The notes under the pieces were generated by a model that had not been told where the DNA came from, did not search any database, and saw only the letters and a list, made by a program, of their open reading frames with translations. A stretch of 64,000 bases of DNA, taken from a virus. Taxonomy: Duplodnaviria; Heunggongvirae; Uroviricota; Caudoviricetes. How positions within the stretch are numbered: the stretch's first letter is position 1; every line of letters begins with the position of its first letter. Shown here in pieces: positions 15,740 to 64,000 of the stretch. Made by a program: the position numbers and the translations under genes. The DNA is taken from IMG/VR virus record IMGVR_UViG_3300027759_003944, one strand, 5' to 3'.

Positions 15740-15955
15740 ATGGAAAACGCATCACTAACCCTAGCCGACATGGCATCACTTAAAAACCTAATCGAAGCCG
15801 CTACTGCACGTGGCGCTTTTCGTGCCAATGAAATGAGTACTGTTGGCGGCATCTACGACAAATTAGATGCTTTCTTAACAGCTACTCAAGCCCAATTAGC
15901 ACAACAAGCTGATGAACAACAATCGGCCGAACCCACACAAGGAGAATCACAATGA
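15740..15955 (+). CDS. hypothetical protein (71 aa)
   Basis: ATG 15740 inside track ORF 15611-15955; ATGA overlap with next gene. Confidence 0.35.
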   Translation: MENASLTLADMASLKNLIEAATARGAFRANEMSTVGGIYDKLDAFLTATQAQLAQQADEQQSAEPTQGESQ

Positions 15956-41443: not shown

Positions 41444-42026
41444 ACATGTCCACGGTGTTTTCCCAAGATGTCAATTCAAGACTCTTGTATCTTACACTCA
41501 CACACCATCGTGAACGGGTACGTGTTTCAACATTGTGCGGTATGCCGGTGCGCACAAGCGTGGGGGTAGTACCTATAATTTTTCTCGTACTCTCATACGG
41601 TGCAATTTGGTCTAATGGCCAGTCTCTGTATAAAGTACCGGCAGGTGTCAACGAATCCACAGGTGGAATTGGTGGGATATCATACCAAATCATTTCGCTG
41701 TCGTCTAGCGAGTCCATGGTCCAATTGATTGCAGAGACAGCAGGTTCGCCGGACCCTGTCAGGATATCAACATGTACAGCAGGATGCAAATAATTGGGTG
41801 TACGATAAAATATCAACGCAGTTCGCACAGGAATTCCTATACTGTGCATGTATTCTATCCAATCAGCCGACAATAATTGGTCAACTGTTTGGTGTCCAAA
41901 ATGCCAAATACCCGCTGGAAGTTCAGCATATATGCTGTTGCGTAACAAATCATCAAGCACAACGTCTTTGCGGACTGCTTCTGCCACATCAATGGTCAAC
42001 TCCTGCCATGGTTGTTGATAATTCAT
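41412..42026 (-). CDS. hypothetical protein, possible 2OG-Fe(II) oxygenase/cupin (HxD...H...RxS)
   Basis: PAVHVD...GIPHNVETRTRSRWCVSVR. Confidence 0.3.
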   Translation of the reverse strand: MNYQQPWQELTIDVAEAVRKDVVLDDLLRNSIYAELPAGIWHFGHQTVDQLLSADWIEYMHSIGIPVRTALIFYRTPNYLHPAVHVDILTGSGEPAVSAINWTMDSLDDSEMIWYDIPPIPPVDSLTPAGTLYRDWPLDQIAPYESTRKIIGTTPTLVRTGIPHNVETRTRSRWCVSVRYKSLELTSWENTVDMFEPWIKNVNS

Positions 42027-47991: not shown

Positions 47992-48600
47992 TTATACAGC
48001 ATTTATGTTGCTCAGCGTCTGTATACGCAGGGTGTAATCAATTTGAATTTGTCTATTCAAACTTTTTTGCACCGGGTGAAAAATCACATGAGTGATCAAC
48101 CGTAAATTAGTTGTACTACCATTCCATGTTTTAAGTCCCAATTCATCAAATACAAATTCTCCATTGAAATTTGTTGAATTATCAAAGGCTTGTTGTGTGG
48201 GCGGTTCGCCATAGTCCAACAAACAAGTCACAAGAATATCACTGTATACATTGCCACTGGTGTGCAGCGCAGTCATCTTGTTGTTTTCTGGATCAATGTT
48301 GGCAGCTGAGTTGTCATCAACCACTTTGGCGTAGGTTTGATTGTACAAGTCGGCGTTTTGACCAGTGGTGTTTGGGGGCAAATATGTGATAACGCCTGTG
48401 GGGTCAACTGAACTTCCACCGTTGCCAAATGCCATTTGATAGATGTAACCGGTGTTGCGATCGCTCAGAGTTTGAGCCATGGCCAAACTGATATTTTCGT
48501 AGTGAATCGCGTTCTTTTTGTCCACCAGCACTTCACCAGTTTTGGGATCGTGTATCTTTACAAATCCTTCAATTTTGCACAGTCCGGGCTGAATAATCAT
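47992..48600 (-). CDS. hypothetical structural protein (202 aa)
   Basis: ORF, ATGA coupling with upstream small gene. Confidence 0.5.
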   Translation of the reverse strand: MIIQPGLCKIEGFVKIHDPKTGEVLVDKKNAIHYENISLAMAQTLSDRNTGYIYQMAFGNGGSSVDPTGVITYLPPNTTGQNADLYNQTYAKVVDDNSAANIDPENNKMTALHTSGNVYSDILVTCLLDYGEPPTQQAFDNSTNFNGEFVFDELGLKTWNGSTTNLRLITHVIFHPVQKSLNRQIQIDYTLRIQTLSNINAV

Positions 48601-48752
48601 GCTCGTCCCTCCACGTAAGTTTTTAGGGTCTTTGGATCAAATATACGCATATGGGCTTGTACACTGATTGTGCCAGTTTCGTTGGGTCGGCGAGCAGGTT
48701 GCTCTTTTGGGGGGTTTGACTCCACCGTTTGTGTTTCAGTTTGATTTGCCAT
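48597..48752 (-). CDS. small hypothetical protein (51 aa, MANQTETQTVESNPPKEQPARRPNETG...)
   Basis: Fills gap between giant gene stop and next gene; TGA overlaps downstream ATG. Confidence 0.35.
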   Translation of the reverse strand: MANQTETQTVESNPPKEQPARRPNETGTISVQAHMRIFDPKTLKTYVEGRA

Positions 48753-48771: not shown

Positions 48772-51700
48772 TTATCTGCCGCACAAAAACCTTGCGGCCA
48801 CAGTGTCGGTTTCTTGCAAGGCCACCCCGTCGCTGGCAGTGTTGACACCTGGTTGATACCAGCTCAATCCGCGGCGTTGCAATATCAGCACTTCACTGCC
48901 AGCTGCTGGTGGCAACATGGGAGTGATGGGGTCGTTGTCAACTAGAAACTCAATAGCCAAGGGCGAAAAATCAGTTACAATATATCGATATTCACTGGTG
49001 GCCTGGGTTTCACTGTAGTTGTATTGTCTTACTCCACCCACATAGACTTCAACACTTTCTGTGTAAGCAGTACTAGAGTCGCCAAAATCTCCAATATCTA
49101 TTTTGGGGGCATAATAGATAGTTGTACTACCATCGGCTAGACTTGAATTAGACACTACGTAATTTTGGTACACTTCATTCAGCAAATTGCCTGTGCCCAA
49201 GTCATACACTTCTGTGCCAATCAGGTGCGAAGTGGCCGCTGTGCCAGCTGTGCCTCTGCGCAGGCTCGATACTGTGTTAGACACCAAGTCAATATCGCGA
49301 TACAAAATACGCTCGCCGTTAATGGTAATTGTACCAAACACACCACTGGCCAAGTTTGGTATTGATAATTTTGCAGCATCTTCAACATAAATTATGTCAG
49401 CAGTGGCTGACAATGCTTGTGCCAACACAGTGGTTGTATCAGCAGTCATACGATAAGTTGCTTGTACACCGCGCATGTCTTGGAAAATACGGAATGCTGC
49501 GGCTTCAGGTACTATACTGTCAGTAAATTCTGTTATCACCATGGTCTCTGTGGGACTGATTGCACCTGATGCCAAAATTAAATATTGGCCCTGTATGGTG
49601 TAATCTGATCCCTCAAACAGTCTTATACCATCCAATGTGACCCACAGTCTACCAGCTGTGACATCCAGTCTTTGCAGATCAAAATTGTTGTCAGGTACAC
49701 TGGTACCGATTGTGTAGTCAAAAGATCCTGGTTGATCATTAAATGATCCCGAATCATAATTGGTGCTGTCATACGGTTCATTTACTGTGAGACCGGTCAC
49801 TATTGGTCCCACAAATACCAATGTCAATGCATTTTGTTGTGCTGTGTCGTTCCAGGTAGTGACAGTAATCTTATCATTGAAATTCAATGCAGCATTAAAT
49901 TGCACCTCATCACCTGCTATTTGATATGCAGCCACGGTAGTTACACTGATCAATATCCTTGCACCAGCTGCTGGCGGTGTAGTAAACACCACTTGGCGTC
50001 CAGGTGTGTTAGTGCCAGTCCAGTTGGTAACACCATAGGTACCAACAGTTGCACCCACGCTTTGCACCTGTAGCACATTGTCTACCCATACTTGAACTTG
50101 ATCAGGTGCATAAATTAAACTTTGTTGATAGCCGCCGCGTTGTGGCAGGCCAAAACTCACAGAACTGTCATCTCCAATCCATTCTATGCCTTCCGGAGGT
50201 TGAATTCTTGCACCATTGATTTCTACTATCATGTTGGCAACGTTGGTACCAGACAAATTGGCAGTTAATGTAACTGAGTTGGTGACCAGCACATCACCAA
50301 CTGCAACAAAATTTTCAACTACTGGAGTACTCCAACTTTGGAAATCAGTTGGTACAAATTTGGCGGTAAGCTCGCCTAGCCATAGAGTTTGATCGTCTAT
50401 TAGATCAACTTCGGTTGTGCCGTTCAAACTCAATGTTATTGCATTGGTAGAATCTTCTACAATGCTGAAGATTTGATATTGTTCACTAGTCAACACACCG
50501 CCCAGGCTGTAACCTGAGAATGTCACAGTCTGTCCCACGGTGAGTGTGCTCAAATCGCCTTGCAAGATCACGGCATTGCTTGTGCCCACAACTTCTGTTG
50601 CTGGCATACTCAATGCATTGCCCAAGGCCACGACTGTGACCAAATCTGTCAAGGTCACAGTGACTGGTATCTCAACCTTGGAGTAGTTGGAAGGTACAAA
50701 TGGTAACCAATATGTGGTGTTGGTCAACAAAATACCTGGCGGTATTGTTTGAACAGCGCGATAATATGTGCCTGATGGACTGCCGGTCATTGAACCAGAT
50801 GCTGTGGTCAATGTCAACGCTGTGGTTGAACCAGCCACGTCAGTGATTAAAAACTGTGTGCCATTGGCCACGCTTAACACATAGTATGTTACACCACTCG
50901 CAATGCCACCAAACACAGTGCCAGAAAATACAATGGGTTGTCCTATTGTCAATGAACTGGTGTTATTGCACGTGATCACACTGTATGTACTATTGGTATC
51001 GGTACAAGTGATGGTGTTGTTGTTGAACACCACGTCCAATGCCTGGTATTCTGAAGTCAGCGTCCAAGGAATAGATTCTATGTATGGTGACACAAGGGGG
51101 CTGGCGACCAAACTTCCATTTACAAAGATTGGTACACTTACAATTTCTTTGTAGGCCACTGGTATGATAACATTGTTGTTTGCAGCAATGATGTCAGCGC
51201 TCAAATATGTTTTTCTAAACAGTTGGCTGCCGCCACCCACTTCGTACACATTGATATTAATGATTTCGCCACTAGCCACCCCAGAAATAATTTCAATGGT
51301 CTGATCAGCCCATTCTATAGAGTAGTTGACATCTTGTATCAAGTCTACACCAGTGGTCAAATTAGATACAAGTACTTGCACCGGCACTTGCACCAAATTG
51401 GCCCAACTGTAAATCAAAGAAATTCCTGGTTGGTATGTGTAACGAACAGAAGTTATTTGGAATCCATGCCCATTGTTATCCCAGTCTGATCCTGGACGAG
51501 TGTAAATTCGCATGTCCAACGTGTCATACTCTGATCCATTGACCAGTTCTTCAGGTGCATGCCCTTCGTATGGACCAACAAATTCTCCACCGTCCACATT
51601 GATGTCGCTGAACTGAGTGCCAAGGTAACTGTCTAAGAAACTGCTTTGATAATCTGCATCCAACAACAGTGTTGTTTGTGCTGACATGGTACCAACAGCA

Positions 51701-54700
51701 TCAGTCAGTGACAATGCAAACCCTCCCTCGGATGTGCTAACAGTAAAGGTATTAGCAGTCACAACAGAGTGTACATAGTAGGTGATTCCTACTTGTACGC
51801 CGCCAAATGCTGCCCCAGAAAATTTTACTGGATTGCCCACTGTCAATTGCAGTGTGGCACCACAAGTGATGGTGTTGTCACTGGAGTTGGTTGCTGTGCA
51901 AGCAATAATTGGATCAGTTGAGGAACTGCCCAAGAAATAATTGCCGTACACTTGCACTCCAGGATAGTCAATGCCATCTATCAATAATGGTAGTTCTAGT
52001 CCAGGACTGTTTGCAGCTGGAACATAAAGTCCAGCAGTTCTATCAACACCTGTTAGACCAGTTGCTTGAGCAGCACCCGGATAGGTATAGTTTGCGGCAT
52101 TGACCAAGGTCCAATTTTCAAGATCAAATGTGGGACCAGTAACAGCACTGCTGCCATCTGAACTGCTGGCCGACCATACTTGATTATTGTAACGCACCAA
52201 AGTACCATTCAGATAAGTGCCGGTGGTACTCCAAGTTTCAACCGCTGTTTGGTATTGATATCGGTCATATCTAATCACAGTTTTAAATGAACGTGTGAGT
52301 CCATTGATCAATCTAGGATATGCCACAGCGCCAGTGCCGTTGCCACCATCAAAAGTCACAGTGGGTGTTGAACGATAGCCTGCACCTGAATCAACAACAT
52401 TAATAGCATACACTTGTCCAATGCTGTTCAACAAAGCCACTGCCACAGCAGGACGAATTGGCACTGGATCACCAGGATTGGCAGTAATCACTACTTCAGG
52501 CGGTTCAGTATAACCAGATCCTGTGACAATCACGTCAATGGTGTCGATGCTCATTAGATAATTTTGATACCATTGACTGTAAGGCCACGATGTCCAAACT
52601 GTGCTATTACTGGGCAGATCACTTAAAATATTATTTTGTGAATTGACCGCAGTTCCATGATCATATGGCAACAATATTGGGCTAGTGTACCGAGGAACTG
52701 CCAATGCAGTGTTGTAATAGGCTGGCACATCAAAGTCGGTCATGTCACCAAACCACTCGTTGAAACCATTGTATAACAAATTAAATTCACGAACTTGCAC
52801 ATGGTATGGCTTGACTTCTTGAATGTAATCTAACACAAACTCTTGATTGTCTCGACTGTAGTTCTGGAATGGCAGCAAACTACGAATTCTGTGTTCAACA
52901 TCAATCAAGCTGGTTTTGATCAGCCATTCAGGTGCTGCAAATTCGCTCAGTACAAAGTTAAACATCAAAGTCAATGCACGATTGCGTTCAATCAACAAAT
53001 CATCAATAAAGATTTCCTGGTTGATGGCCTGGATAATTTTACGAGTTTCAATCACAGGTTCTTGATCATAGTACTGAGCATCAAATACTTCCACGTCAAA
53101 CCCAAATCGTCCCAATTGATAGTCCCACAGTTCTGCTGAAAATTCTATAGTGCCATCTTGTAATATCACTCGATCCCATCCAGTTGCTGTGCGCAGGTAA
53201 ATTTCATATTTGCCCTGAGCATTGTCTGTGACTTTTACACTGCTGCCTAATGGTACATCAATTGTGGACAATCCTGCATAATTAGGTACCTCGGCAATAA
53301 TTTTGTTGCTGGCGTTGTATCCAGGCATTACCCAATTAATATAGCTCCAGTATTGTTTGGTGTCGTAATTTTGAACTTGTGTTAGTATTAATTCTCTAGT
53401 GGCCACGGTACCACTGACCAATTGAACTGTGTAAATTGTCCATAAACCTCGATTGTTGCTGTCACTGGTCACCAGGTACTTGTAGCCCAATACAACATCA
53501 TAGATATTTTGGAATCCCAAAATATCAAGGTTGGCCACTTGTTTGTTCCATTTGCCTGATGTGGCACTGGGTTCAGGGTCTTGGCTGTTTAACAGCACAA
53601 ACTCTCTATTTTCTGAAATTGTGTATCTTGCACATACTTCATTGGCTCGTGTTAGATAATTTTTCAGTGCGGCGAATCTATCCACAAACATGCTCTGTCG
53701 TGGACGGAATTGAACACCATAACGTTCTGCCACATTGAGATTGATATCTGGCACCAAATTACCTGCAATGTCTACTCCGCAGAAACTGTCTAATAATTTA
53801 CGATATAAATTATCACTGAGAAATCCATCTGCTTGATCTTGTGCAATTAATTCGTACTCAACGTGTACATCATCATTGGTGTATTCACGATCAAACTCAA
53901 TACTGATAATGGTATCTTGTGCTGAAATAAGATCTCTAGCATTGTAAATTGCAAAGGTACTTGCATCAATCGGAGCAATATATGGTATACCACTAGCTCG
54001 AGGATTGCTAATATAGTTGGCCACTGTGCTGATTGGCAAAGTTTTGCCTTGTGCAGTTGCAGTGGTGGTCAATCCGCGTACCCAAAAATAATATTCACGC
54101 ACAAACACGCCAGTTTGATTCAACACAGTGTTAACTGTGTAACTTGTGGTGTCTCTCGGAAAGCCAGGACCTACATAGTTGGCTGGTGGCACATTGCTCA
54201 CTATCCATTGATATACATCCACTGAACTTCCTGGGAATACTTGTCCCCACCGTCGGCTGGCGTAAACAATATCATCTTGATTGGGGTCAATAAATCTCAC
54301 AGTGCCGGTATCCCACCAAGTCTGTCCTAGATATCCAGCAAACCAACTTGAACCAGTTATGTTACGAGGTCCTACATTGTAATTGGCAGGATCTACTGCT
54401 CCAATGTAATCCAAGTTTTGTTTGGCAGCACCAAGAATTTTGCCTTGCAATGGATTGAAAAAATCAAAATATGATGTAGTAGCCGAAGTGGCGCGATCAT
54501 ATGCATAAACTGAATTTAACAATCTTACGTCTACAACTGGCAGTTGTTCTCTTAGCACTGTCCATGCTGGTGTACGAGTGGCATTTTCACTTATGAACAC
54601 TCGCCCGTAATTGCCGGTCAATGTGCTGTCGCCCAGTTCATTACCAGGAGCACCGGCCCATAATAGGCCAGAAGTGTAATCAACTGCTGCACCATATCTG

Positions 54701-57700
54701 TCATATGAATTCACATTAGAATTTTGTATTTGCTGACCAAACACAAACTTGCCAGGATTGCTCAGGGTGTTAGTACTACTGGACAACAAATCATAAGTGT
54801 ATATAGATCCACTTTGCATCACCTGGTCAAAAAAGTCAGTGACTCCTTCATCAAATATTGTTTCGCCAAGATCAAAAATTACTTCAAGATACAATGTTCC
54901 CTGTGGAGCACCCACAACCAGGTTAACAGCAGAATCGTCTACACTGATGCTGGCACCAAATGAAGCAAAATCTTGCGGGTATGGACTGATTATGGTTTGA
55001 GTAAATGCAAATACATCAAATCCAAGATCTGCAAATGTAGTGCCTATGCTGCCTGGTGCCACCTGCAACTTGTTGCCAACTGCTGCGGCGGCTGAGTTTT
55101 TAACTGCCAAGGTCAACCTTCCTGACCCATCAACTGTGGCGTTGACGTTAGGCACTGCGGCGTTGATGGCTGTGGCCAAATTAGCCACAGTGTTATTGGG
55201 GCTGGCAGCTACTGCCACATCTATGTTGTCAACCCGCAAAGTATTGCCAGCAGTCAACACAGGATTGCCAACAGTGGATGTTATAATACCGTAGGTGCGA
55301 CTTTGATTGACATTGCGTTGAACCACACCACCCTTGAATGCTTGAATACCACTCTGCGGAGCGCCCACATACAGGCTGCAATTGTAACTGCAAAGATCTA
55401 GTGCTTGTCCAAAGTTACTGAATTCTTCTAGTGCGGTTTGATGCACAATCTGTGTCTGTGCAAATTGATTGGTCTCAATTTCTACTATGTCACCAATTTG
55501 TAAATTGCCGTTGATGGTGACCACGTTGCCGTTCACTGTGAATGTATTGCTGGCATGTGGTGTTGTGGCAGCGGCATTCAGCAAAAACTCACCATTTACC
55601 AACACACTCACTGGTTCAGTAACTGTGCCCAACACAGTAAAGTCTACTGAGGATGTATCTGTGCCATATATGAATTTTTGTACGTTTCTGTCATACACAT
55701 AAACCGAGCCTGCCTGCGGATACGAGTTTACCGTGGACACTGTCATGGTCAAGTTGTTGTACAACACACTGCCGCCCAACACACTGCCAAGTATGGTGAT
55801 TGTATCTCCCACAGCGTAGCCTTGTCCAGGATCTGTTACTGTGACTGAGTAGGTGTTGGCTGCTTTTGCTATGGTGAATCTGGCACCAGTGCCTGATCCA
55901 GAAGTGGAATTTTGTGAGATATTGGTGTATGTGTTGGTGCCAACTGCTGCTAGGCCCAAAGTTGACACAGCATCCAATGCACCCGAAATCAATACTTTTT
56001 CACCGCCAATTAGCACTTGACGACCATCAGTGCTGGTGCTTACACTGCTGCCAAATCTATCACCTGCTGTGCTGCCACCATAAGATATTGTGCCGGCATA
56101 TTCAAAATATCCTTCGGCACGTACCAAGATTGTGGTTCCTGCCGCAGGCACACTGCCAATAAAAGTCAAATCTTTAGTGGTTGAATTGAATGTGTAATCA
56201 ATGTTGGGACGTTGTAAAACATCATCGACTTGGACACTGAAACTGTAAATGGTATCAACTGTGAAAAAATACTCATTCAATGAGAATGTGTTGACCAATG
56301 TGCCTGCATATGTAGGAGTACCAAATATGCCAGTAACCTTGCCACCTGCCACGGTGACTTGCAGCACAATATTAGCATTGCCGTCAAAACTTGCTGCTGA
56401 TATGGTCAATGTACCTGCGCTGGGACTGCCATTTGCGTAACCTGACCCACCACTGCTCACCGACACTGTCACAGTGTTACGTAGTCTAGTCACAGTAAAT
56501 TCTGCGCCTGTGCCTGTGCCACCTGTGGCTATTACATTGTAATAAACCCCGAAATCAAGAATTTTTCGATTCACACGTTGAATTTCGACGGCTTCGCCAT
56601 CAGCGGGTGCATTGGTGAATGTCACTGTGCTGAAAGAGGAATCCACAGTGTAATCAACATTCAAAATTTGGCCAGCGCCACCTACACCAATTTGCAACTG
56701 GGTGGCAGCATTGATTTGTATTGCATCGCCAATGTAGAAAGATTTTGTTAATCCATTACCAAATGCATTTAAGAATTGTTTTTCCCAGGGCACCTGTCCG
56801 TACGCATAAACTCGGTTAACACCCGGTGCACCAATATACATCCAACGCTCGTCTAGGCTCACAGTGGCTGAGTAACCAAATTCTCCTTGATCCACACTGA
56901 CACTGTCAGGAGTGGTCAGCAGTTGCCATGGTCCGTAAGGTATGCTGCCGGGTGCGGCCAACAGTGGGTCACGATAGATCACAGCCGCATATCCATTGTT
57001 GGCTTGGCTGGCGCTGCCCAGGCTGGCTGATGCTCCGGCCACTGCCCAGTCTTTGTTGCCAAACGCAACACTATTACCAAACCCACGCACACCGGTGACA
57101 TCCAAGGTCAAGACTGAATCAAGTGGTGCCAGTGGACTAATCACAGTGTATGTGTCGCTGTCGCTGCGAACATATACATATACGCCACCTTTTCTGGGTA
57201 GTGCATCTAAAGAATACGATGTCCAGTAAGTGGTATTGGTTGGCACTGGTCCTGGTGGTGTTGGAGTTCCCAGTACACATTGATAAAATGCAGTTTGATA
57301 AGGATCACGTACAAATACAATGTCGCCTACGTTGTAAATCTCTGCTTGGCTCCATTCAGTTGCATCTACAGGGAATCTATATTGCGGGCTACCCACAATT
57401 GCGGCATACTGACGCTGTGCTTGTGCCACACTGGAACTGTACTGCTCACTTACATCAGTCAACACTGGTGCTAGTTCAGTCAAAGAAGAGAATACTTCTT
57501 CTTTTTTCAACACAGTCCACGAATCGTCACCATTGTTGTCGACCCAAACTTGAGCACCAGGCTGAATGGTGTTGGCATACGGTAAATTGATAATGTCGCT
57601 GGCCTGAGCCACACGTTGAGTCTGCAATGTAAACGCTAGTCCAGTACTGTCAACAATGGTACGACTGCCAGTAAAACTGAATGCAACGGTGATTTTTTCC

Positions 57701-60700
57701 AGACTTGGTACACTGATAACTGTGTATACTCCGTCAACTTCAAAATCAAACTGTTTTATGATGAGTTGATCACCTGATTTTAAACCATGTTGCTGTGAAA
57801 ATATCACCAAGCTGGTGCCATCTAGGTTGTCACATACGTGTTGCACTGTGCCCGGCACTGCTTCGGCTCGATAGATGTCCCAGTCATATTGATTGGTTTT
57901 TGCCACCCATATGGTGGTACCAACAGCAATGAGATTTAAATTTGCTTCCAAACTGGCAGTGTCATTTATGTCAAACACTGTGATGTCAGCATCATCTAAA
58001 TTGACATAACCAGCAGTGGGCAGTGCTGTGTCTGTTGGCAATGACTTGGTGACTGGCAGTATGTCCGGCGATGTTATTTTGTAACTTTGTCTCCATATGT
58101 CTGACAACAAAATGGGTTGATCTGCCTGGCTTGATTCACCTGCAGCCACCACTTGTACCAAACTGGGATTGCTATTAAGTAGAGCACGATCCAATCTCAA
58201 CTGGAAGAAACTGCGGTTGGCATTGGCTCCATACACCGCACGTTGCACTGCCCAATTTTCATAGATGTTGTAGTCTGCCTGTTCTTTACCAAGATTGGCT
58301 TGTGCAAATAATTCTGCACTGAGTATGGTGCCTTTTGAGCCCAAGAATTGTCGATAGATGTTCAGTTGACTGACGTCATCAAGATTTAGAGATGACATGT
58401 ATTGTCGTGGACGGAATCCGATCAAGCCGTAACTCAGCAGGTCATTGTCGCTGTCCAAATTGGCAGTGTTGATGTTGTAGCTGTTTTGCAACTGATCAGC
58501 TTTGTTGGCCAAATTGGGCAACAGTCCCAATTCAATGCGTGTGTAATCACTTTGATACCAGTCATTGGCGTTGAACAAGATACTGGGCTGTACAATAGTG
58601 GCTGCTGACCAATAGGTGCCTTTGTAAGTGACAATTTCGCCTTTGGCGTAGGTCTTGTATGGATCCCATGCTTCAATGTTGTTTTGATTTAAAATAAACC
58701 CTTGAGCATCAACTGAACCATTCCATTCAGTTGAGGTGGCAGCAATCAAATTCAATCTGCTTTGTCTAGCACCTGTAATAGGTGCATAAATCAAATCACC
58801 AAATGTACTGGCATTGTCCAACACAATCATATGTTCATATGCAGTGTACTTGAGATCAATATAGCTCAGCGTTTGATCTGTGGCCGGTTCCACAGTGAAT
58901 GTGTTGTCCAAGCGGGTGATAATCAAGTTACGAGTGGGCAATTCATTACGATTTTGATCCAGTAAAATATTTTCGTTGGTCTGTGCCACAATGCTGTCTA
59001 CTATGACCTGCGGTCTAGTCACACTGAGTTTGAATGCCAAGGGATTCAAATTGATCAAGGCATTGTCATCCCAACCTTGTTGACTCCAGTACAGGAATTC
59101 ATTGACCATTTGCCCCCAACTCAAGATATAGCCATTGGTGGTGTCTGTAAACGTCACACCTTGACGTTCAAGATATTGCCCATAGCCTAACATAAAGTCA
59201 CTGACTGCTGTTTGGTTGGCAAACACAGTGCCATAAGGTACCTGCACAATTTGATTGCTGTAGGTGGTTGGTACTTGTACTGTGGCTCCACCACTGCTGT
59301 AAGTTTGTAGTTGTCCAGCAAACACGCTGGCTATGGTGTTAAAATAAGGCTGCGTGGTGCTGTAGCCAAACACTGCATAACCACCAGGTGTTTGCTGTAC
59401 CACTACTGATGAATAGCTGACTCGGTCAAACGGTTGATTTTTATACAACAGCAAATTGTAACTGTCATCAGGAATCAAGAACGTGGTGTTGATACTGTTG
59501 GGACTGGACTTTTCAGTGTAAATTTTGATATACTGTTTGTCGCTGAAGCTGGCCATTCGGTAACACAGTCTCACATCAAGGCTGGCTAAGTCAGCAGTGA
59601 GTTGGGTGGTGCTGTCAAGACCACTGTTGCGATTGTAGTCCACTATCCAGTCAATATAACTGGCTTTGCTGACACCATTTCCATAAACTTCAATTCCATT
59701 GGCATCCAAGCGGTACCGGTCATTGTACAGATATTGTCCAAATTCTGCTTGATAACGATACAAATCTCTATCAGCAAATAGTGCAAAGAATTTAGCCGGC
59801 TGTGTCAATGCCAACAATCGCATGGCCGCAAAAGGATAGGCACTCGAATTCCACCATGATGCTTCCACAGGGCCGCCATCGCCTACCGCCCAGCTCTTGC
59901 GGAAAGTTTGATCATTGTATTTGCCAGTCACTGCGTCGAATGGACTCAACAATTCACCTTCTGTGCCAGTGGGTATTATTTTGCTCAGTCCTGGACGAGC
60001 ATATTCGGGTCGATAATATCCTCCCATTGGATCAGCAACATATCCTGCTTCCAAATCGTCCCACAGCACCAAGTTGTCTTGTGTGTATGGTCCAGGACCA
60101 TAAACCACAGTCCACCAGTCTGGTTCTACACTGAATCCCAGCATCTCCCATGGAGTAAGTTGGGGCTGTTGAGTATCATAGTAGTAGCGATAGATGCCGC
60201 GCCAGGCACCCAACAAGGGTCGATTATCTAATTTGCTCTGACTCCCGCTGTAGTTCCATGTGAACTCATTGTTGGCGCGATAATCTTGTGCGCGATAATC
60301 CAATTTGTTCCAGGCCACATAACTCAAAAAATCTTGTTCTAAAATAGTGGTTATCTCACTTGATGAGAAACCAGTTGTTCTGAATTGTCCAGGAACTACT
60401 TCTGCTAGATTAATCGGAACTGGGTTACCATCTAATTTTAGATTGTTGTAAATTCTTGTTTCAAATTCCAACAACACCTGATCTCGAATGTCATTAAATG
60501 CACGAGTGACTGATCCATCATGCCCAATGATTACTGATTGTGTGCCAGTGCTGGTGACTTCGGTTATTTGCTCTGGGCGCCAGGCAGGATACAACCCCAG
60601 CTTGGTAGGTGTGTTGGGGACAAATGTGCCATATGTGGTGTCGTACTCATTTATGGTCAACACATCACCCAATGTTAATGTGGTCAGCACAGTAATTCTA

Positions 60701-63700
60701 GGACCATCCGTGGCCACAATGTAATCTAGTCCGCGTGTTAAAATTACATCATTTAGATAAACATCCATGCCTTGGTAATTTGCCGAGGTATAATTATAGA
60801 CATTTCGAATGTCAAATGTAGTGCCTGTGGTATTTGAAATTGGGTAAGTCAATGTTTGATACACGCTGCCTGCAGGCAACATGTCTGACCAATAGAACGG
60901 TTGAGTAGATACTCGTCCCAGAGTGATATCGGCCATGGCAGTATCCAACACCTGTGCTGCGGTCTGATATTGAATGAGTTGTTGTGTGACAGCATTCAAC
61001 ATCTGCCCTTTGAATTTTAAATATTCGTTGCTGTTGTACTGCAAGCTGGCAAAAATATTAAACTTTTCGCTGCGCAAGAAATATCCAGCCAGTGTCAATG
61101 GAGCACTCTGTTGCAGAATAATTTGTCCGTATATGCTGATGTCGCCTAGATCTCTACTGTTGTTGGCACCAGATACCGGTCCTGACAAATCAGCCAAATT
61201 CTCACAGATACTTTCATAATGAGTGCGAATAGTACCCAGTGTAAACACATTGCTGTTGCCATTTAATGGATTATTTTGCAAGTTAATGGGCACTTGATAA
61301 AATGCCACTGCACTGGTTTGGTCACTCAAGGCCAATAATTCAATTACGTCAGTTGGCAAATATGTGTTGGTCAATGTAACGGTGGTGCTGTTACTACTGG
61401 TAAGATAAGAATATTCACTAGGGGGAATGAATGTTGATCCCACGTAAATTTTCAATGGCGGCAGTGATGATGTTGTTCCTACTTTTACATCCAACTGTAA
61501 AGTTCTACCAGTGTAAGTGAATTTAAATTGTTGATAATCTTGGCTGGTGGACACTGCTGTTTTCCAACCCAACAGTCGTTCAAATGCAGTGCGTGTGGCA
61601 TATTGTCTAGGTGTTCCTGAACTGATGGCTAGTGTTTGACTGACATTATCAACCACATAAACAAATGTGTCTTTGTACAAGTTGTTTTCAAAAACAATAT
61701 CACCAATGTTGTTGATGTTCAAATATTGCAATGGGAATTGCAATATAGGATCCAGTATGCCAGTGTCGCCCACAGCATAACTCAGTAGCTTGCTGCCAAC
61801 AAATGTGCTACTGGGATAGGTAGCGTTATTGCTAAAACTCACACCATCCAGATTGTACACATCAAACAATGGGGCTTGTTGCACGCCAGTTTTGAGTTGG
61901 GCCTGGGCCCATGATGATCCGTTATACCAAAAAGTCAGTCCTTTGAGTGTGAGTCCATCAAGACACAACACTGATTGATCAGCCAATACTGCACCATCAC
62001 TGGCTTCTACTAGATGAATAACTGGTTGTGGTCCAGGATACGGTGGACTCATGGGCGGTGAAGAGTCAGGAGTAATAAACTGAACAATATAAACTTTATC
62101 TCGTACTTCAGGATCTAGGTCAGCCGCAAACACAACTCGGCTGCCGTCAACAAATGTGTATCCGTCAACGCTGTAGCTGGTAGATCCTTCTATGTTACTC
62201 AAGGCGTCAGTTTGTGAAAAATCAATCACATTGATTGGCTGTTTGCCTTCTGTGCCCATGTTGAATAATCGAATATCAGGTTGAAATTCAATAATGGGAC
62301 GTTTGGCACGGTAATCATTGTCTAAAACTGGTGGAAGATTGTTGTAAGTAGCCGAAGCCTGAATCACATCCAAATGGAACCAACGATTACTGCGGGTCCA
62401 GGCATTTAGATCCAGACTGGCCCGGTCAATAGTGAGATAATCAAGATCTTTGGGCTCTACAGCAGCCGTGCTGTCGTTGTCATCTATCACATAGGTTTCT
62501 GGACACACAAAGTTAGAGACCGGCAGTAATTCAATGGCTTTTCCAACCCCACTAACATAGTACTGTTTGTCACTTATGGCTGTGGCTGAGAAGCCTGCGC
62601 CTGTGGCACTGCTGACAGCAAATCTTGCACCGCCCAGTTGTTCAGAAATAGAAAATTGTATTCCATTGGCTGTGAGTGTGTCTACATAGTAGGTTTGCCC
62701 AGGCACAATACCGCCTAGGGTGGTACCTGTGAACACGATCGCTTCACCCACATACAATCCAGCAGTAGAATTACAAGTAATAAGATTGCTACCTCCCACT
62801 GTGGCTGTGTAGGTCAGTTGAGTAGTACCTGATCCATAACTGGCTGGTTCTACCGAGCCTATAAATTTAACTTTGAGTCCGTTGGTAAATTGTACACCGT
62901 TGGGACTGGTATAATTCTTTTGTCCAATAACTTGATCAATGTAGGTTGTATCTGCTTGAGTTGGTTCTAGCAATCTAATCCGACCAAATATTTCTGGGTC
63001 AGTGCCGTCTTGGTAGTACAAGGTATCTAGAGTTGCGGTCAACAGAGGAATCTGTGAAAAGTAACCTGATCCTGCCTTGTACCATGATGTGTTGCTGTAA
63101 ACATTGCCATACAACACTGTGAATTTTTCATTGACATTGACATTGGCAATCTTAGCCAAACTGATGTAATCTATGCCTTGGCGATTTACAATGTTAATTT
63201 GCCATACCTGATATCGGTCACCAACTGGTACCTCAGTGGTTTGATCAAACTCTATACTGTCAAAGCTACCTGGCAACGTATTGTTAGCATCCAGTCGAAC
63301 CAATGGATCAAACAAGGTAGTTTCTAACCAACCGCCAGTTTCGGCATCAATTACAGGATTGGTAAACACCAATGTGCGATTTTTGAGATATGTGATGCCA
63401 TCAATACCGCCATATTGAGAGATGAATTGTTCTACTTGTTGATTGTTGATCTGATTGAACTGCAAATTAGTCAGCAAATCAATTGGTCCCACGTCTGTGA
63501 GATTGTAATAAAATTCTTGTGCGGTTTTTGTCGGGACTTCAAAAATCACAGTGCCTAGGTCTTGACCGTTTCCACTAACACCATAAACGTCTCTATTGCT
63601 GATGTTGGGAGTGTTGAGGAGTTTGCCATTTACACCTGGATTGGTTTGAATCCAAAACCCCGGTCCGGTGCCAGGCACGCTGTCAACAATGTTGATGGTG

Positions 63701-64000
63701 CCGCGCAGATTGGTTTGATTCTCGCTGGCATAATACAGTGTATCAGGAGCATCCTGTGGCACAACAAATGTCACTAGACCAAAACTGCTGCCGTTTCGCA
63801 ACACGCCTGAATTATATGCATCACCTGTGCCTAGGCTCAGGGCAGTTTTGATCCAGAAAGGATATACACCAGTCAAGTTCAAATTGAAAACATAAGTGTT
63901 GCCACGTGCCAGGGTCAGTGTGGGGTTGGACTGAAAGTCAATTTGATAACTGGTGGTTCCTTGATTTGTCACACGAAAGTTTTCAGTTTCTTTTGTGTTT
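48772..64000 (-). CDS. giant structural/adhesin-like protein, over 5066 aa, 5' end outside window
   Basis: Uninterrupted minus-strand frame from TAA (48772-48774) to the window edge; no in-frame stop in the last 28 nt, so the GTG at 63972 is probably not the real start; Thr/Ser/Gly/Asn/Val-rich beta-type composition; dispersed roughly 55-aa modules (ITC..T..L.VG.P..FSG..FGG...G.TYYV). Confidence 0.75.
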   Translation of the reverse strand, partial: NTKETENFRVTNQGTTSYQIDFQSNPTLTLARGNTYVFNLNLTGVYPFWIKTALSLGTGDAYNSGVLRNGSSFGLVTFVVPQDAPDTLYYASENQTNLRGTINIVDSVPGTGPGFWIQTNPGVNGKLLNTPNISNRDVYGVSGNGQDLGTVIFEVPTKTAQEFYYNLTDVGPIDLLTNLQFNQINNQQVEQFISQYGGIDGITYLKNRTLVFTNPVIDAETGGWLETTLFDPLVRLDANNTLPGSFDSIEFDQTTEVPVGDRYQVWQINIVNRQGIDYISLAKIANVNVNEKFTVLYGNVYSNTSWYKAGSGYFSQIPLLTATLDTLYYQDGTDPEIFGRIRLLEPTQADTTYIDQVIGQKNYTSPNGVQFTNGLKVKFIGSVEPASYGSGTTQLTYTATVGGSNLITCNSTAGLYVGEAIVFTGTTLGGIVPGQTYYVDTLTANGIQFSISEQLGGARFAVSSATGAGFSATAISDKQYYVSGVGKAIELLPVSNFVCPETYVIDDNDSTAAVEPKDLDYLTIDRASLDLNAWTRSNRWFHLDVIQASATYNNLPPVLDNDYRAKRPIIEFQPDIRLFNMGTEGKQPINVIDFSQTDALSNIEGSTSYSVDGYTFVDGSRVVFAADLDPEVRDKVYIVQFITPDSSPPMSPPYPGPQPVIHLVEASDGAVLADQSVLCLDGLTLKGLTFWYNGSSWAQAQLKTGVQQAPLFDVYNLDGVSFSNNATYPSSTFVGSKLLSYAVGDTGILDPILQFPLQYLNINNIGDIVFENNLYKDTFVYVVDNVSQTLAISSGTPRQYATRTAFERLLGWKTAVSTSQDYQQFKFTYTGRTLQLDVKVGTTSSLPPLKIYVGSTFIPPSEYSYLTSSNSTTVTLTNTYLPTDVIELLALSDQTSAVAFYQVPINLQNNPLNGNSNVFTLGTIRTHYESICENLADLSGPVSGANNSRDLGDISIYGQIILQQSAPLTLAGYFLRSEKFNIFASLQYNSNEYLKFKGQMLNAVTQQLIQYQTAAQVLDTAMADITLGRVSTQPFYWSDMLPAGSVYQTLTYPISNTTGTTFDIRNVYNYTSANYQGMDVYLNDVILTRGLDYIVATDGPRITVLTTLTLGDVLTINEYDTTYGTFVPNTPTKLGLYPAWRPEQITEVTSTGTQSVIIGHDGSVTRAFNDIRDQVLLEFETRIYNNLKLDGNPVPINLAEVVPGQFRTTGFSSSEITTILEQDFLSYVAWNKLDYRAQDYRANNEFTWNYSGSQSKLDNRPLLGAWRGIYRYYYDTQQPQLTPWEMLGFSVEPDWWTVVYGPGPYTQDNLVLWDDLEAGYVADPMGGYYRPEYARPGLSKIIPTGTEGELLSPFDAVTGKYNDQTFRKSWAVGDGGPVEASWWNSSAYPFAAMRLLALTQPAKFFALFADRDLYRYQAEFGQYLYNDRYRLDANGIEVYGNGVSKASYIDWIVDYNRNSGLDSTTQLTADLASLDVRLCYRMASFSDKQYIKIYTEKSSPNSINTTFLIPDDSYNLLLYKNQPFDRVSYSSVVVQQTPGGYAVFGYSTTQPYFNTIASVFAGQLQTYSSGGATVQVPTTYSNQIVQVPYGTVFANQTAVSDFMLGYGQYLERQGVTFTDTTNGYILSWGQMVNEFLYWSQQGWDDNALINLNPLAFKLSVTRPQVIVDSIVAQTNENILLDQNRNELPTRNLIITRLDNTFTVEPATDQTLSYIDLKYTAYEHMIVLDNASTFGDLIYAPITGARQSRLNLIAATSTEWNGSVDAQGFILNQNNIEAWDPYKTYAKGEIVTYKGTYWSAATIVQPSILFNANDWYQSDYTRIELGLLPNLANKADQLQNSYNINTANLDSDNDLLSYGLIGFRPRQYMSSLNLDDVSQLNIYRQFLGSKGTILSAELFAQANLGKEQADYNIYENWAVQRAVYGANANRSFFQLRLDRALLNSNPSLVQVVAAGESSQADQPILLSDIWRQSYKITSPDILPVTKSLPTDTALPTAGYVNLDDADITVFDINDTASLEANLNLIAVGTTIWVAKTNQYDWDIYRAEAVPGTVQHVCDNLDGTSLVIFSQQHGLKSGDQLIIKQFDFEVDGVYTVISVPSLEKITVAFSFTGSRTIVDSTGLAFTLQTQRVAQASDIINLPYANTIQPGAQVWVDNNGDDSWTVLKKEEVFSSLTELAPVLTDVSEQYSSSVAQAQRQYAAIVGSPQYRFPVDATEWSQAEIYNVGDIVFVRDPYQTAFYQCVLGTPTPPGPVPTNTTYWTSYSLDALPRKGGVYVYVRSDSDTYTVISPLAPLDSVLTLDVTGVRGFGNSVAFGNKDWAVAGASASLGSASQANNGYAAVIYRDPLLAAPGSIPYGPWQLLTTPDSVSVDQGEFGYSATVSLDERWMYIGAPGVNRVYAYGQVPWEKQFLNAFGNGLTKSFYIGDAIQINAATQLQIGVGGAGQILNVDYTVDSSFSTVTFTNAPADGEAVEIQRVNRKILDFGVYYNVIATGGTGTGAEFTVTRLRNTVTVSVSSGGSGYANGSPSAGTLTISAASFDGNANIVLQVTVAGGKVTGIFGTPTYAGTLVNTFSLNEYFFTVDTIYSFSVQVDDVLQRPNIDYTFNSTTKDLTFIGSVPAAGTTILVRAEGYFEYAGTISYGGSTAGDRFGSSVSTSTDGRQVLIGGEKVLISGALDAVSTLGLAAVGTNTYTNISQNSTSGSGTGARFTIAKAANTYSVTVTDPGQGYAVGDTITILGSVLGGSVLYNNLTMTVSTVNSYPQAGSVYVYDRNVQKFIYGTDTSSVDFTVLGTVTEPVSVLVNGEFLLNAAATTPHASNTFTVNGNVVTINGNLQIGDIVEIETNQFAQTQIVHQTALEEFSNFGQALDLCSYNCSLYVGAPQSGIQAFKGGVVQRNVNQSRTYGIITSTVGNPVLTAGNTLRVDNIDVAVAASPNNTVANLATAINAAVPNVNATVDGSGRLTLAVKNSAAAAVGNKLQVAPGSIGTTFADLGFDVFAFTQTIISPYPQDFASFGASISVDDSAVNLVVGAPQGTLYLEVIFDLGETIFDEGVTDFFDQVMQSGSIYTYDLLSSSTNTLSNPGKFVFGQQIQNSNVNSYDRYGAAVDYTSGLLWAGAPGNELGDSTLTGNYGRVFISENATRTPAWTVLREQLPVVDVRLLNSVYAYDRATSATTSYFDFFNPLQGKILGAAKQNLDYIGAVDPANYNVGPRNITGSSWFAGYLGQTWWDTGTVRFIDPNQDDIVYASRRWGQVFPGSSVDVYQWIVSNVPPANYVGPGFPRDTTSYTVNTVLNQTGVFVREYYFWVRGLTTTATAQGKTLPISTVANYISNPRASGIPYIAPIDASTFAIYNARDLISAQDTIISIEFDREYTNDDVHVEYELIAQDQADGFLSDNLYRKLLDSFCGVDIAGNLVPDINLNVAERYGVQFRPRQSMFVDRFAALKNYLTRANEVCARYTISENREFVLLNSQDPEPSATSGKWNKQVANLDILGFQNIYDVVLGYKYLVTSDSNNRGLWTIYTVQLVSGTVATRELILTQVQNYDTKQYWSYINWVMPGYNASNKIIAEVPNYAGLSTIDVPLGSSVKVTDNAQGKYEIYLRTATGWDRVILQDGTIEFSAELWDYQLGRFGFDVEVFDAQYYDQEPVIETRKIIQAINQEIFIDDLLIERNRALTLMFNFVLSEFAAPEWLIKTSLIDVEHRIRSLLPFQNYSRDNQEFVLDYIQEVKPYHVQVREFNLLYNGFNEWFGDMTDFDVPAYYNTALAVPRYTSPILLPYDHGTAVNSQNNILSDLPSNSTVWTSWPYSQWYQNYLMSIDTIDVIVTGSGYTEPPEVVITANPGDPVPIRPAVAVALLNSIGQVYAINVVDSGAGYRSTPTVTFDGGNGTGAVAYPRLINGLTRSFKTVIRYDRYQYQTAVETWSTTGTYLNGTLVRYNNQVWSASSSDGSSAVTGPTFDLENWTLVNAANYTYPGAAQATGLTGVDRTAGLYVPAANSPGLELPLLIDGIDYPGVQVYGNYFLGSSSTDPIIACTATNSSDNTITCGATLQLTVGNPVKFSGAAFGGVQVGITYYVHSVVTANTFTVSTSEGGFALSLTDAVGTMSAQTTLLLDADYQSSFLDSYLGTQFSDINVDGGEFVGPYEGHAPEELVNGSEYDTLDMRIYTRPGSDWDNNGHGFQITSVRYTYQPGISLIYSWANLVQVPVQVLVSNLTTGVDLIQDVNYSIEWADQTIEIISGVASGEIININVYEVGGGSQLFRKTYLSADIIAANNNVIIPVAYKEIVSVPIFVNGSLVASPLVSPYIESIPWTLTSEYQALDVVFNNNTITCTDTNSTYSVITCNNTSSLTIGQPIVFSGTVFGGIASGVTYYVLSVANGTQFLITDVAGSTTALTLTTASGSMTGSPSGTYYRAVQTIPPGILLTNTTYWLPFVPSNYSKVEIPVTVTLTDLVTVVALGNALSMPATEVVGTSNAVILQGDLSTLTVGQTVTFSGYSLGGVLTSEQYQIFSIVEDSTNAITLSLNGTTEVDLIDDQTLWLGELTAKFVPTDFQSWSTPVVENFVAVGDVLVTNSVTLTANLSGTNVANMIVEINGARIQPPEGIEWIGDDSSVSFGLPQRGGYQQSLIYAPDQVQVWVDNVLQVQSVGATVGTYGVTNWTGTNTPGRQVVFTTPPAAGARILISVTTVAAYQIAGDEVQFNAALNFNDKITVTTWNDTAQQNALTLVFVGPIVTGLTVNEPYDSTNYDSGSFNDQPGSFDYTIGTSVPDNNFDLQRLDVTAGRLWVTLDGIRLFEGSDYTIQGQYLILASGAISPTETMVITEFTDSIVPEAAAFRIFQDMRGVQATYRMTADTTTVLAQALSATADIIYVEDAAKLSIPNLASGVFGTITINGERILYRDIDLVSNTVSSLRRGTAGTAATSHLIGTEVYDLGTGNLLNEVYQNYVVSNSSLADGSTTIYYAPKIDIGDFGDSSTAYTESVEVYVGGVRQYNYSETQATSEYRYIVTDFSPLAIEFLVDNDPITPMLPPAAGSEVLILQRRGLSWYQPGVNTASDGVALQETDTVAARFLCGR

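Follow-up and report, generated by a model that had tools for sequence, protein, structure and literature searches.

The window analysed here is a stretch of 64,000 nucleotides from an uncultured jumbo myovirus, in a clade with a genome size of ~340–350 kb. A giant ORF on the minus strand runs off one end of the window (Table 1). Its frame, minus-strand frame 1, is free of stops for 5,075 codons, and the product counted from the first GTG in the window is the 5,066 aa of the ORF listing. From the regional base composition, the probability of finding no stop in 5,075 codons is ~1e-131. Over the same span, the other five frames contain 178–352 stops. The protein is rich in Thr, Ser, Gly, Asn and Val, as the initial annotation had described (T 9.9%, V 8.8%, L 8.3%, G 8.1%, S 7.9%, A 7.4% and N 6.6%), and is very low in C, H and M.

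Table 1. Features of the giant ORF and of the genes that follow it. Residues are numbered from the first codon in the window.
Feature	Residues (aa)	Position	Strand	Remarks
Giant ORF	1-5075	48772..63999	(-)	5,075 codons and a stop at 48772-48774; N-terminal 191 codons beyond the window
Cupredoxin-fold beta-sandwich	5-110	63670..63987	(-)	phrog_677, C-terminal part; fold match; YPFWI...LYYASENQTNLRG
Cassette with module A copy 1	389-476	62572..62835	(-)	Domain aa 398-467 = 62599-62808
First block common to PA5oct gp355	482-627	62119..62556	(-)	PA5oct aa 202-330
Main family hallmark block	675-1968	58096..61977	(-)	27% identical to PA5oct gp355 aa 650-1995
CBM5/12-like (chitin-binding type 3) unit	1777-1798	58606..58671	(-)	Below Pfam threshold
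Clade core region	1969-3065	54805..58095	(-)	No BLAST/phmmer alignment to PA5oct gp355
Second span common to PA5oct gp355	3066-3747	52759..54804	(-)	Blocks aa 3066-3463 and 3551-3747 = PA5oct aa 2222-2823
Module A copy 2	4035-4103	51691..51897	(-)	
Module A copy 3	4333-4402	50794..51003	(-)	
Module A copy 4	4468-4538	50386..50598	(-)	Diverged, without Cys
Conserved C-terminal region	4555-5075	48775..50337	(-)	FRIFQDMRGVQATYR, GERIxYR, RGTAGTAA.H; ends ...FLCGR
Tiny ORF, 51 aa		48597..48752	(-)	Directly after the giant gene; conserved
202-aa protein		47992..48600	(-)	phrog_11259
600-aa fibre-type protein		46161..47963	(-)	N-terminal ~86 aa match PA5oct gp358

The start of the gene lies beyond the window, as the initial annotation had stated. 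Residues 192–5269 of the 5,269-aa protein from a 96.3%-identical relative (L008) align with aa 1–5075 of the window. In ~40 relatives with a Met start, window aa 1 aligns at their aa 192–194. The L008 alignment therefore gives a full protein of ~5,266 aa, of which 191 N-terminal residues lie outside the window and ~96% lies inside. The family N-terminus, MAxxR(S/T)xxFLP, falls in the outside part and is present in L008 and ~40 relatives. The conserved family C-terminus is present in the window, and its end, ...FLCGR, is kept in >100 relatives, so the stop is genuine.

The giant ORF represents a genuine and intact gene, and purifying selection acts on it. The frame is uninterrupted in 53 independent IMG/VR assemblies (4,077–5,325 aa), its dN/dS is 0.095 over the full length and its codon-position GC pattern is uniform. 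These observations leave almost no room for an artefact of assembly, a pseudogene or a chimera in which misassembly has joined several genes, and they dispose of the worry about an artefact that the initial annotation had raised. Some relatives are called as split or truncated (L004, 1,430 aa; L005, 4,004 + 1,096 aa; L022, 1,206 aa). We rejected the apparent splits in two of them as real, since L004 carries many frameshifts typical of long-read errors and the one in L005 comes from a scaffold gap of 10 N. A search for near-identical DNA in the phage collection, with the ORF and window 1–25000 as queries, gave no match.

By homology, the giant protein is a member of the PHROG 10938 “virion structural protein” family, known from Rak2-like and related jumbo myoviruses; PA5oct gp355 and Atu_ph07 gp180 are two other members. 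Two thirds of the protein match phrog_10938 (E 2e-148 and 3e-90), BLASTP gives 5e-126 against PA5oct gp355 and 1e-85 against Atu_ph07 gp180, and tblastn finds matches in 92 phage records. PA5oct gp355 (gp128 in the 2020 paper) is virion-associated (PMC7318152), and its record notes detection in virions by ESI-MS/MS. Family members measure 3,857 aa in PA5oct, 4,449 aa in Atu_ph07 and up to 6,999 aa elsewhere, in metagenomes. The size that the initial annotation had called exceptional for a phage is thus normal for the family, and the gene is striking yet precedented because the family is already known from these two phages. Neither phmmer, run with each half of the protein against PDB sequences, nor hmmsearch, run with family profiles of the N- and C-terminus, gave a meaningful match.

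The genes after the giant gene are conserved as well. Counterparts of the tiny ORF are found in PA5oct (gp356, 41 aa), Atu_ph07 (gp179, 42 aa) and L005–L007 (41–50 aa). Identities of the 202-aa protein are 39% with PA5oct virion protein gp357, 54% with its Atu_ph07 counterpart and 78–95% with those of L005–L007. PA5oct gp358 carries a T4 gp10-like anchor in its annotation and matches the N-terminus of the 600-aa protein at 36% identity; the 600-aa protein is therefore likely a fibre that docks on the baseplate periphery. Homology supports the same downstream order in L005–L007 (tiny ORF, ~200-aa virion protein, fibre). The window ends inside the giant gene, and the upstream side was read from PA5oct, Atu_ph07, L004 and L007, in which gp25-like and gp6-like wedge genes lie just upstream. 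The order in relatives is gp5-like hub, gp25-like wedge, gp6-like wedge, giant gene, tiny ORF, 200-aa virion protein and gp10-like-anchored fibre.

Along the protein, most of the length is non-repetitive clade core, and six cassette sites were mapped at which cassettes vary by presence and absence. Residues 5–110 show a cupredoxin beta-sandwich fold, and this domain recurs in unrelated large proteins at 45–53% identity. The His/Cys/His/Met copper ligands are absent from it: it has no Cys or His, and YPFWI and LYYASENQTNLRG stand at the expected sites when the sequence is read without a structural alignment. The domain is the second of a tandem cupredoxin-like pair, the first of which lies outside the window. 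The hallmark block also aligns to Atu_ph07 gp180 and contains the motif WRGIYRYYYDT...PWEMLGF. Within this block, Pfam CBM_5_12 scores 18.6 bits (cutoff 26.2). The annotation of a PA5oct-like homolog names a chitin-binding type-3 domain, and one relative (P0196) carries a precomputed PF02839. By eye, units resembling CBM5/12 were also seen near aa 2216–2260, 3922–3965 and 4410–4432. The region from aa 1969 to 3065 has weak Pfam matches to the T7 tail fibre N-terminus (Phage_T7_tail) and flagellin-IN. It also contains FG-GAP-like “FG..VGAPQ” units at aa 2846–2882 and 2997–3033, which are mutually similar by BLAST. Pfam FG-GAP_2 scores 17.8 bits (cutoff 23), and more “FG...GAP” strings are visible by eye.

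The initial annotation had reported four or more dispersed modules of ~55 aa. The modules are real and dispersed (tile-versus-protein BLAST E 1e-14 to 2e-5), and an HMM finds exactly four copies of this module A; the unit is ~70 aa. The cassette with copy 1 is absent from ~40% of full-length relatives. The cassette with copy 2 (aa 4023–4111) is cleanly missing from some, e.g. P0092, and the variable region at aa 4296–4554 is found in ~41% of relatives. The Cys of module A is conserved in 54% of instances. Module A also occurs in a bona fide tail-fibre protein. A scan of proteins with many copies showed that it is absent from Pfam, and a cluster look-up returned uninformative names. Module A is an unannotated ~70-aa repeat domain that is gained and lost as a cassette among relatives and is common to large phage host-contact proteins. 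A second repeat family, module B, is formed by aa 2485–2559 and 2692–2767. Its iterated HMM drifted into module A, and we therefore report the original pair alone. The FG-GAP-like units are a third family.

Structure models were made for the N-terminal 1,030 aa and the C-terminal 1,100 aa, with the ~3,000 central residues outside them. The modelled thirds are almost entirely beta, which bears out the beta-rich character proposed earlier, and form chains of distinct globular domains that are confident as monomers (pTM 0.62–0.70). Fold search assigned cupredoxin-like sandwiches to the N-terminus. In the C-terminal third, it assigned domains resembling fibre-anchor, tip-attachment and peripheral-baseplate proteins, and the conserved region at aa 4555–5075 lies within this confident all-beta model. 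The N-terminal ~120 aa are highly conserved and give low model confidence when folded alone. A fibre-type N-terminal anchor domain was found. Neither the Pfam and PHROG matches nor the models contain a repetitive shaft, a beta-helix, a coiled coil, a depolymerase domain or a receptor-binding domain at the C-terminus.

Among very large phage proteins, tape measures and ejection proteins are common. The size of the giant protein and the virion association of its PA5oct homolog would agree with a tape-measure-like, internal or ejected protein, but the evidence makes this highly improbable. The modelled thirds are nearly all beta, unlike helical tape measures, and their fold matches are external tail-tip and peripheral proteins. 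The gene lies in the wedge and fibre block and not beside tube or chaperone genes. In Atu_ph07, the tape measure is gp701, a gene separate from gp180 (PMC6102473).

The initial annotation had suggested a giant fibre or adhesin. Such a fibre, homotrimeric and projecting from the baseplate, would have the repeat modules as its shaft and the C-terminus as its receptor-binding tip. Beta-rich composition, the anchor- and tip-attachment-like domains of the C-terminal third, the weak Phage_T7_tail match, the CBM5/12-like units and the presence of module A in a genuine tail-fibre protein all speak for it. However, the gene stands between a gp6-like wedge gene and a separate gp10-like-anchored fibre gene, which is an atypical position for a fibre. 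The models show globular domains in place of a repetitive shaft, coiled coil or beta-helix, and most of the protein is non-repetitive core. PA5oct gp355 and many full-length relatives have no module A, so this module cannot be an essential shaft. We therefore consider a fibre unlikely. What stands of the proposal is a virion surface or tail structural protein, given the detection of PA5oct gp355 by MS and the C-terminal fibre-anchor-like domains; the fibre shaft and a fibre-like gene position are lacking. A protein of the baseplate periphery agrees better with these data than a fibre does.

As a whole, the data are probably best explained by a virion structural protein at the outer baseplate periphery of a jumbo myovirus, in the role of gp7/gpI. 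The giant protein would take the part that T4 gp7 and P2 gpI play in smaller contractile tails. It would be attached to the gp6-like wedge, most likely through its conserved N-terminal ~120 residues, and from there several dozen beta-rich globular domains would follow one another outward in a long chain, which may form the outer periphery of an oversized baseplate and offer docking sites for fibres. The module A, module B and CBM5/12-like cassettes, which are of carbohydrate-binding or repeat type, could contact the host surface.

The giant protein shares its position directly downstream of the gp6-like wedge gene with T4 gp7, P2 gpI and T6SS TssG, as read in relatives (L004, L007, PA5oct and Atu_ph07) and compared with the T4 order gp6-gp7. 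The gp7-like part is lateral, fibre-contacting and evolutionarily plastic (PMC8894135), and these traits fit the domain content of the giant protein, which is five times as long as T4 gp7. With respect to gp7 it is best treated as a positional analogue and not as a demonstrated homolog, since the sequence and profile tests of homology failed and the fold search of the modelled thirds gave no gp7-like match. The sequence and profile comparisons were made with T4 gp7 and the gp7 core. BLASTP found no similarity to T4 gp7. Hhalign gave probabilities of 0.1–0.2% for A1 against gp7, for A1 and A2 against the gp7 core and for a 36-sequence full-length profile against the gp7 core, with a shallow gp7-core profile (the homolog search with the T4 gp7 core gave 5 proteins). 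Pfam Gp7_helical, Gp7_5th and Gp7_6th matched neither three segments of the giant protein (E ≤ 0.01) nor the N-termini of relatives (E ≤ 5). The same Gp7 domains matched T4 gp7 itself (E 1e-30 to 1e-47). In two relatives, Pfam scans of the first 250 aa gave no match at E ≤ 5 except a chance-level CarboxypepD_reg. No gp7, TssG or gpI fold was among the top matches for the N-terminal 1,030 aa, whose first 120 aa are of low confidence, or for the C-terminal 1,100 aa. Two motif resemblances, IRSLLP..DNQEFV to KIKSNLP..DVIRFV and DIRDQVLLEFETR to DKRDAVARFFESR, were set aside at a probability of 0.2% or less.

The initial annotation had also named the giant protein as a candidate substrate of the adjacent glycosylation and rSAM machinery. 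If the downstream radical-SAM/SPASM enzymes, the neighbouring sugar-modification genes or the two together matured the giant protein, this would add to its structural role. On at least 15 contigs with the giant gene, relatives of the rSAM genes lie 10–14 kb downstream of it and are oriented alike. In L006 and L007, the structural genes are directly followed by the genes of 468, 373 and 447 aa, and the Atu_ph07 rSAM genes lie 5–8 kb downstream of gp180. In addition, I(T/A)C motifs that border module A hold 5 of the 16 Cys of the giant protein. Against this, PA5oct has the giant protein and no rSAM gene within the inspected ~8 kb downstream, and the sugar genes are lineage-specific insertions. 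The module A Cys was downgraded as an rSAM target, given its partial conservation and a relative with no module A copies that still carries an rSAM gene. Nearby small ORFs of 51, 102 and 114 aa are equally plausible substrates. We therefore regard maturation of the giant protein by these enzymes as improbable. There is a similarly small chance that the paralogous radical-SAM/SPASM array has as its natural substrate the giant protein or the small conserved proteins encoded beside it. If so, tail virion proteins would be covalently cross-linked or otherwise modified by phage rSAM maturases, a kind of structural-protein maturation undescribed for phages.

In bacterial viruses, few gene products are as large as those of this family, which is conserved in many jumbo myoviruses and verified in virions through PA5oct. 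It has already been seen in phages such as PA5oct and Atu_ph07, but its members have no assigned function or solved structure, and baseplate models do not include it. The window contributes a new, well-assembled member of ~5,270 aa with baseplate-block context, a domain map and a definition of module A. The present evidence enlarges a known family; it does not point to a new kind of system.

Compared with PA5oct gp355, homology is colinear over ~2,400 residues in the blocks of Table 1, with 27% identity in the main block. PA5oct gp355 and Atu_ph07 gp180 have an N-terminus that looks conserved by eye and the same gene position, after the gp25-like and gp6-like genes and before the tiny ORF, ~200-aa virion protein and fibre. 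In contrast, the protein of the window exceeds PA5oct gp355 by ~1,400 aa and Atu_ph07 gp180 by ~800 aa. Its ~1,100-aa stretch with the FG-GAP-like units and module B (aa 1969–3065) does not align to PA5oct gp355, and it has four module A cassettes whereas PA5oct gp355 has none.

The fibre and tailspike N-terminal anchors that it resembles are those of T7 gp17, the GP4 fibre, CBA120 TSP4 (T4 gp10-like domains) and the K64-1 depolymerase. Here they are small adaptor domains within a far larger non-fibre scaffold, in which no depolymerase domain or shaft was detected. Domain-level likeness was also found to phiKZ gp27 in the outer peripheral baseplate network (PDB 9XQD), at a sequence identity of 7%. 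The phiKZ periphery is built from at least five separate proteins (gp26, gp27, gp130, gp139 and gp157), whereas here one ~5,270-aa polypeptide may supply much of it. If one polypeptide does build the outer periphery, it would represent an alternative way of scaling host recognition in jumbo phages, and its cassette sites would be natural targets for host-range engineering, in contrast to the multi-protein periphery of phiKZ.

A stop-free run of 5,075 codons extends on the minus strand from the stop codon at 48772-48774 to the window edge at 63999, in agreement with the initial annotation of a single frame running off the window. ORF calling, counted from the first GTG inside the window, gave 5,066 aa. 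From base composition, the chance of meeting no stop over 5,075 codons is about 1e-131, and each of the remaining five frames contains 178-352 stops in the same span. The GC1 > GC2 >= GC3 pattern is constant along the gene and is like that of the adjoining genes. Residue counts (T 9.9, V 8.8, L 8.3, G 8.1, S 7.9, A 7.4 and N 6.6%) bear out the Thr/Ser/Gly/Asn/Val-rich composition described initially; Cys (16), His (17) and Met (31) are rare.

The start had been placed beyond the window, and this was confirmed by comparison with relatives. About 40 metagenomic relatives start with Met (MARVRS, MATVRS or similar), and residue 1 of the window protein corresponds to their residues 192-194. The nearest relative, locus L008, has an ORF of 5,269 aa, whose residues 192-5269 align to window residues 1-5075 with 96.3% identity and 3 gaps. 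This alignment indicates that 191 N-terminal residues are missing from the window and that the complete protein has about 5,266 aa.

Relatives of the giant gene are encoded at 156 IMG/VR loci. At 53 of the 54 loci containing both gene ends, the gene is one unbroken frame of 4,077-5,325 aa, and the median length of the 43 full-length IMG/VR relatives analyzed further is 4,872 aa. Nearly all intact IMG/VR relatives share the N-terminus MA(R/T)xRSVDFL. The C-terminal end (...FLCGR, FLCDR, FLRGL) is kept up to its final residues in over 100 relatives, so the stop codon is genuine. Against L008, dN/dS is 0.095 overall; it is 0.04-0.14 in each of the ten complete blocks of 500 codons and 0.11-0.24 in the cassettes that are optional. 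The intact loci and the overall dN/dS refute, for practical purposes, the possibility that the frame is an assembly artefact split by frameshifts or stops. Judged from these sequence comparisons, the giant gene is real, intact and translated.

Two split homologs proved to be technical cases. In L004 the homolog (10001-15789 of an 86.6-kb JGI contig) is riddled with frameshifts and its translation hops among all three frames, probably through long-read assembly error; errors of this kind probably also account for the short, fragmentary state of most relatives in the database. In L005, a Tara Oceans scaffold, a 10-N gap interrupts a gene that is otherwise colinear over aa 558-5075.

The gene adds a well-assembled member to a known family of giant virion proteins of jumbo phages whose function is unexplained. 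Two thirds of the protein match phrog_10938, "virion structural protein" (E 2e-148 and 3e-90). When 50,697 phage records were searched by tblastn, 92 matched at 24-28% identity, and those listed are jumbo myoviruses, including PA5oct and relatives, Salicola SCTP-2, Serratia BF, Erwinia phages, Atu_ph07, Sinorhizobium Phosso and E. coli 121Q-like phages. The PA5oct homolog, gp355 (3,857 aa), was detected in virions by ESI-MS/MS according to its record note. The PA5oct paper lists this protein as gp128, among the phage's two largest and next to the baseplate genes gp129 and gp130, and assigns it no function (PMC7318152). The Atu_ph07 homolog, gp180 (4,449 aa), is likewise without an assigned function in its paper (PMC6102473). 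A search with the repeat termed module A found further members of 5,574-6,999 aa that have the same N-terminus and are colinear with the window protein at about 25-45% identity over 3,000-4,000 residues. Those of 6,483-6,999 aa (P0261, P0246/P0382, P0222, P0306, P0227 and P0243) carry 10-15 module A copies and rank with the largest phage-type proteins in the sequences examined, and P0246 (6,979 aa) is encoded on a 363-kb contig. The size had been called exceptional for a phage; in a family reaching 6,999 aa, the window protein is by predicted length large yet typical.

Module A is the dispersed repeat noted initially, which we confirmed by tile-vs-protein BLAST (E 1e-14 to 2e-5 between copies) and HMM. 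Four or more copies had been noted; the HMM finds exactly four, and each unit spans some 70 aa rather than the roughly 55 given initially. The consensus of 104 instances is TaT.agtN.ITC.sTs.L.VGQPIvFsGtvFGGIvaGttYYV.SIvn.TqFtIs.t.gGt.v.LtTAtG. No Pfam family matches it. Of 1.84 billion clusters at 50% identity, 668 contain module A, with at most 36 copies per protein; one carrier is the 4,003-aa tail-fibre protein P0244 (phrog_9851, E 2e-156). Coverage by the 43 full-length relatives divides the giant protein into a clade core of about 88% and six variable cassette sites, and single cassettes are cleanly absent from individual relatives. Module A copy number varies from 0 to 4 across these relatives and correlates with protein length (r 0.70); the window lineage has the highest count (4) among them. 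Matches to Pfam CBM_5_12, FG-GAP_2, Phage_T7_tail and Flagellin_IN were all below threshold in the giant protein.

Near the window edge lies a ligand-less cupredoxin-like domain (63670-63987, aa 5-110). Versions of it that are 45-53% identical are found in large proteins with no other relationship (P0068-P0088), one of them from eukaryotic transcriptome data. Weak Pfam "At5g54830-like", fn3 or Ig-like matches are present in some of these proteins. The distribution suggests a domain that is widely shared or mobile.

Repeat units, cassette sites and downstream genes of the giant gene (aa, window part of the protein)
Feature	Residues (aa)	Nucleotides	Strand	Basis or remark
Module A copy 1	398-467	62599-62808	minus	HMM
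Module A copy 2	4035-4103	51691-51897	minus	HMM
Module A copy 3	4333-4402	50794-51003	minus	HMM
Module A copy 4	4468-4538	50386-50598	minus	HMM
Module B, GxGxGA.F...GxGY	2485-2559 and 2692-2767			BLAST/HMM
FG-GAP-like units, FG..VGAPQ	2846-2882 and 2997-3033			BLAST/HMM
Cassette site, A1	389-476			
Cassette site, CBM5/12-like unit	2208-2270			
Cassette sites, module B	2476-2570 and 2666-2755			
Cassette site, A2	4023-4111			
Cassette site, A3 + CBM-like unit + A4	4296-4554			
Conserved 51-aa ORF		48597-48752	minus	directly downstream of giant gene
202-aa protein			minus	next after 51-aa ORF; 39% identical to PA5oct virion protein gp357
600-aa protein			minus	next; N-terminal 86 aa match PA5oct gp358, annotated T4 gp10-like anchor
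Four sugar genes		39048-42026	minus	204 aa; 215-aa hexapeptide acyltransferase; 245-aa DegT-family fragment; 358 aa
Paralogous radical-SAM/SPASM genes		30253-39060	minus	run of ~400-470-aa genes

Radical-SAM (rSAM) genes, a hexapeptide acyltransferase and a DegT-family aminotransferase lie downstream of the giant gene, which had been proposed to encode a substrate of this machinery. At least 15 IMG/VR contigs carry both the giant gene and a relative of one rSAM gene; the latter always shares the giant gene's orientation and lies 10-14 kb downstream of it (13.5 kb in the window). In L006 and L007, genes of 468, 373 and 447 aa come directly after the structural genes, and in Atu_ph07 the rSAM genes are 5-8 kb downstream of gp180. 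The genomic linkage is real. It does not identify the giant protein as the substrate, which is a candidate at most: the roughly 8 kb inspected downstream of the PA5oct gene contain no rSAM genes, only 54% of the 104 module A instances retain the Cys of the ITC motif, and a relative with zero module A copies still has the rSAM gene. In three of the rSAM paralogs the SPASM iron-sulfur domain (aa 9-146) is N-terminal to the Radical_SAM core (from about aa 120-200), the reverse of the usual order.

The four sugar genes are flanked by the 468-aa rSAM-like gene and a conserved gene of 322 aa, and L006 and L007 lack them at that site; by this synteny they are a lineage-specific insertion. Close to the corresponding site, L005 has sugar-activation genes of other kinds (CTP_transf_like, PfkB), so the region looks like a hotspot for insertion of sugar-modification genes. 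The DegT/DnrJ/EryC1 match in the 245-aa product (40114-40851, minus) spans profile positions 26-94 of 360 only, and the overlapping 358-aa ORF (39048-40124, minus) has no Pfam match; together they may represent an aminotransferase gene that is split or degenerate. Sugar chemistry is also represented at 27653-29137 (minus) and 19351-21475 (plus), by a Nol-like carbamoyltransferase (phrog_1601, E 7e-93), an aminotransferase and a nucleotide-sugar epimerase, and the window taken whole is rich in glycan-modification functions. Elsewhere, the plus-strand block 9933-13086 encodes an ATPase (phrog_1297, E 5e-98) together with a 441-aa protein whose PHROG match carries the annotation HNH endonuclease (phrog_1314, E 1.5e-107), and this block has no near-identical DNA in the phage collection. 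A 734-aa ORF (22089-24293, minus) and two ORFs of about 392 aa (24292-26629, plus) have no PHROG match at E <= 0.001.

In PA5oct, Atu_ph07, L004 and L007, the gene immediately upstream of the giant gene is a gp6-like wedge gene (phrog_10646, phrog_219, DUF8360, weak Gp6-like_1st). A gp25-like gene (PF04965, phrog_43) precedes the gp6-like gene in the same relatives, and a gp5-like hub/lysozyme gene is further upstream in L004. Nine downstream genes keep their order, by homology, in L005-L007. This arrangement is the usual one for contractile tails: the order is gp6 then gp7 in T4 and W-J-I-H in P2, and by gene order in relatives the giant gene occupies the gp7/gpI slot. No search supported homology to gp7. 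BLASTP found no similarity to T4 gp7; Pfam Gp7_helical, Gp7_5th and Gp7_6th match T4 gp7 strongly and do not match the giant protein; and hhalign probabilities were at most 0.2% when family profiles (N-terminal, C-terminal, full-length) were compared with T4 gp7 or with a gp7-core profile built from five sequences. Neither structural search of modelled segments returned gp7, TssG or gpI. The giant protein is best regarded as a positional and probably functional analogue of gp7 rather than a member of its family, and most likely is a baseplate-periphery scaffold and fibre-docking protein with exchangeable surface-binding cassettes. Compared with the window protein, PA5oct gp355 leaves about 1,100 residues (aa 1969-3065) without alignment. 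It aligns to blocks aa 482-627, 675-1968, 3066-3463 and 3551-3747, and by eye its N-terminus and one C-terminal motif also resemble those of the window protein.
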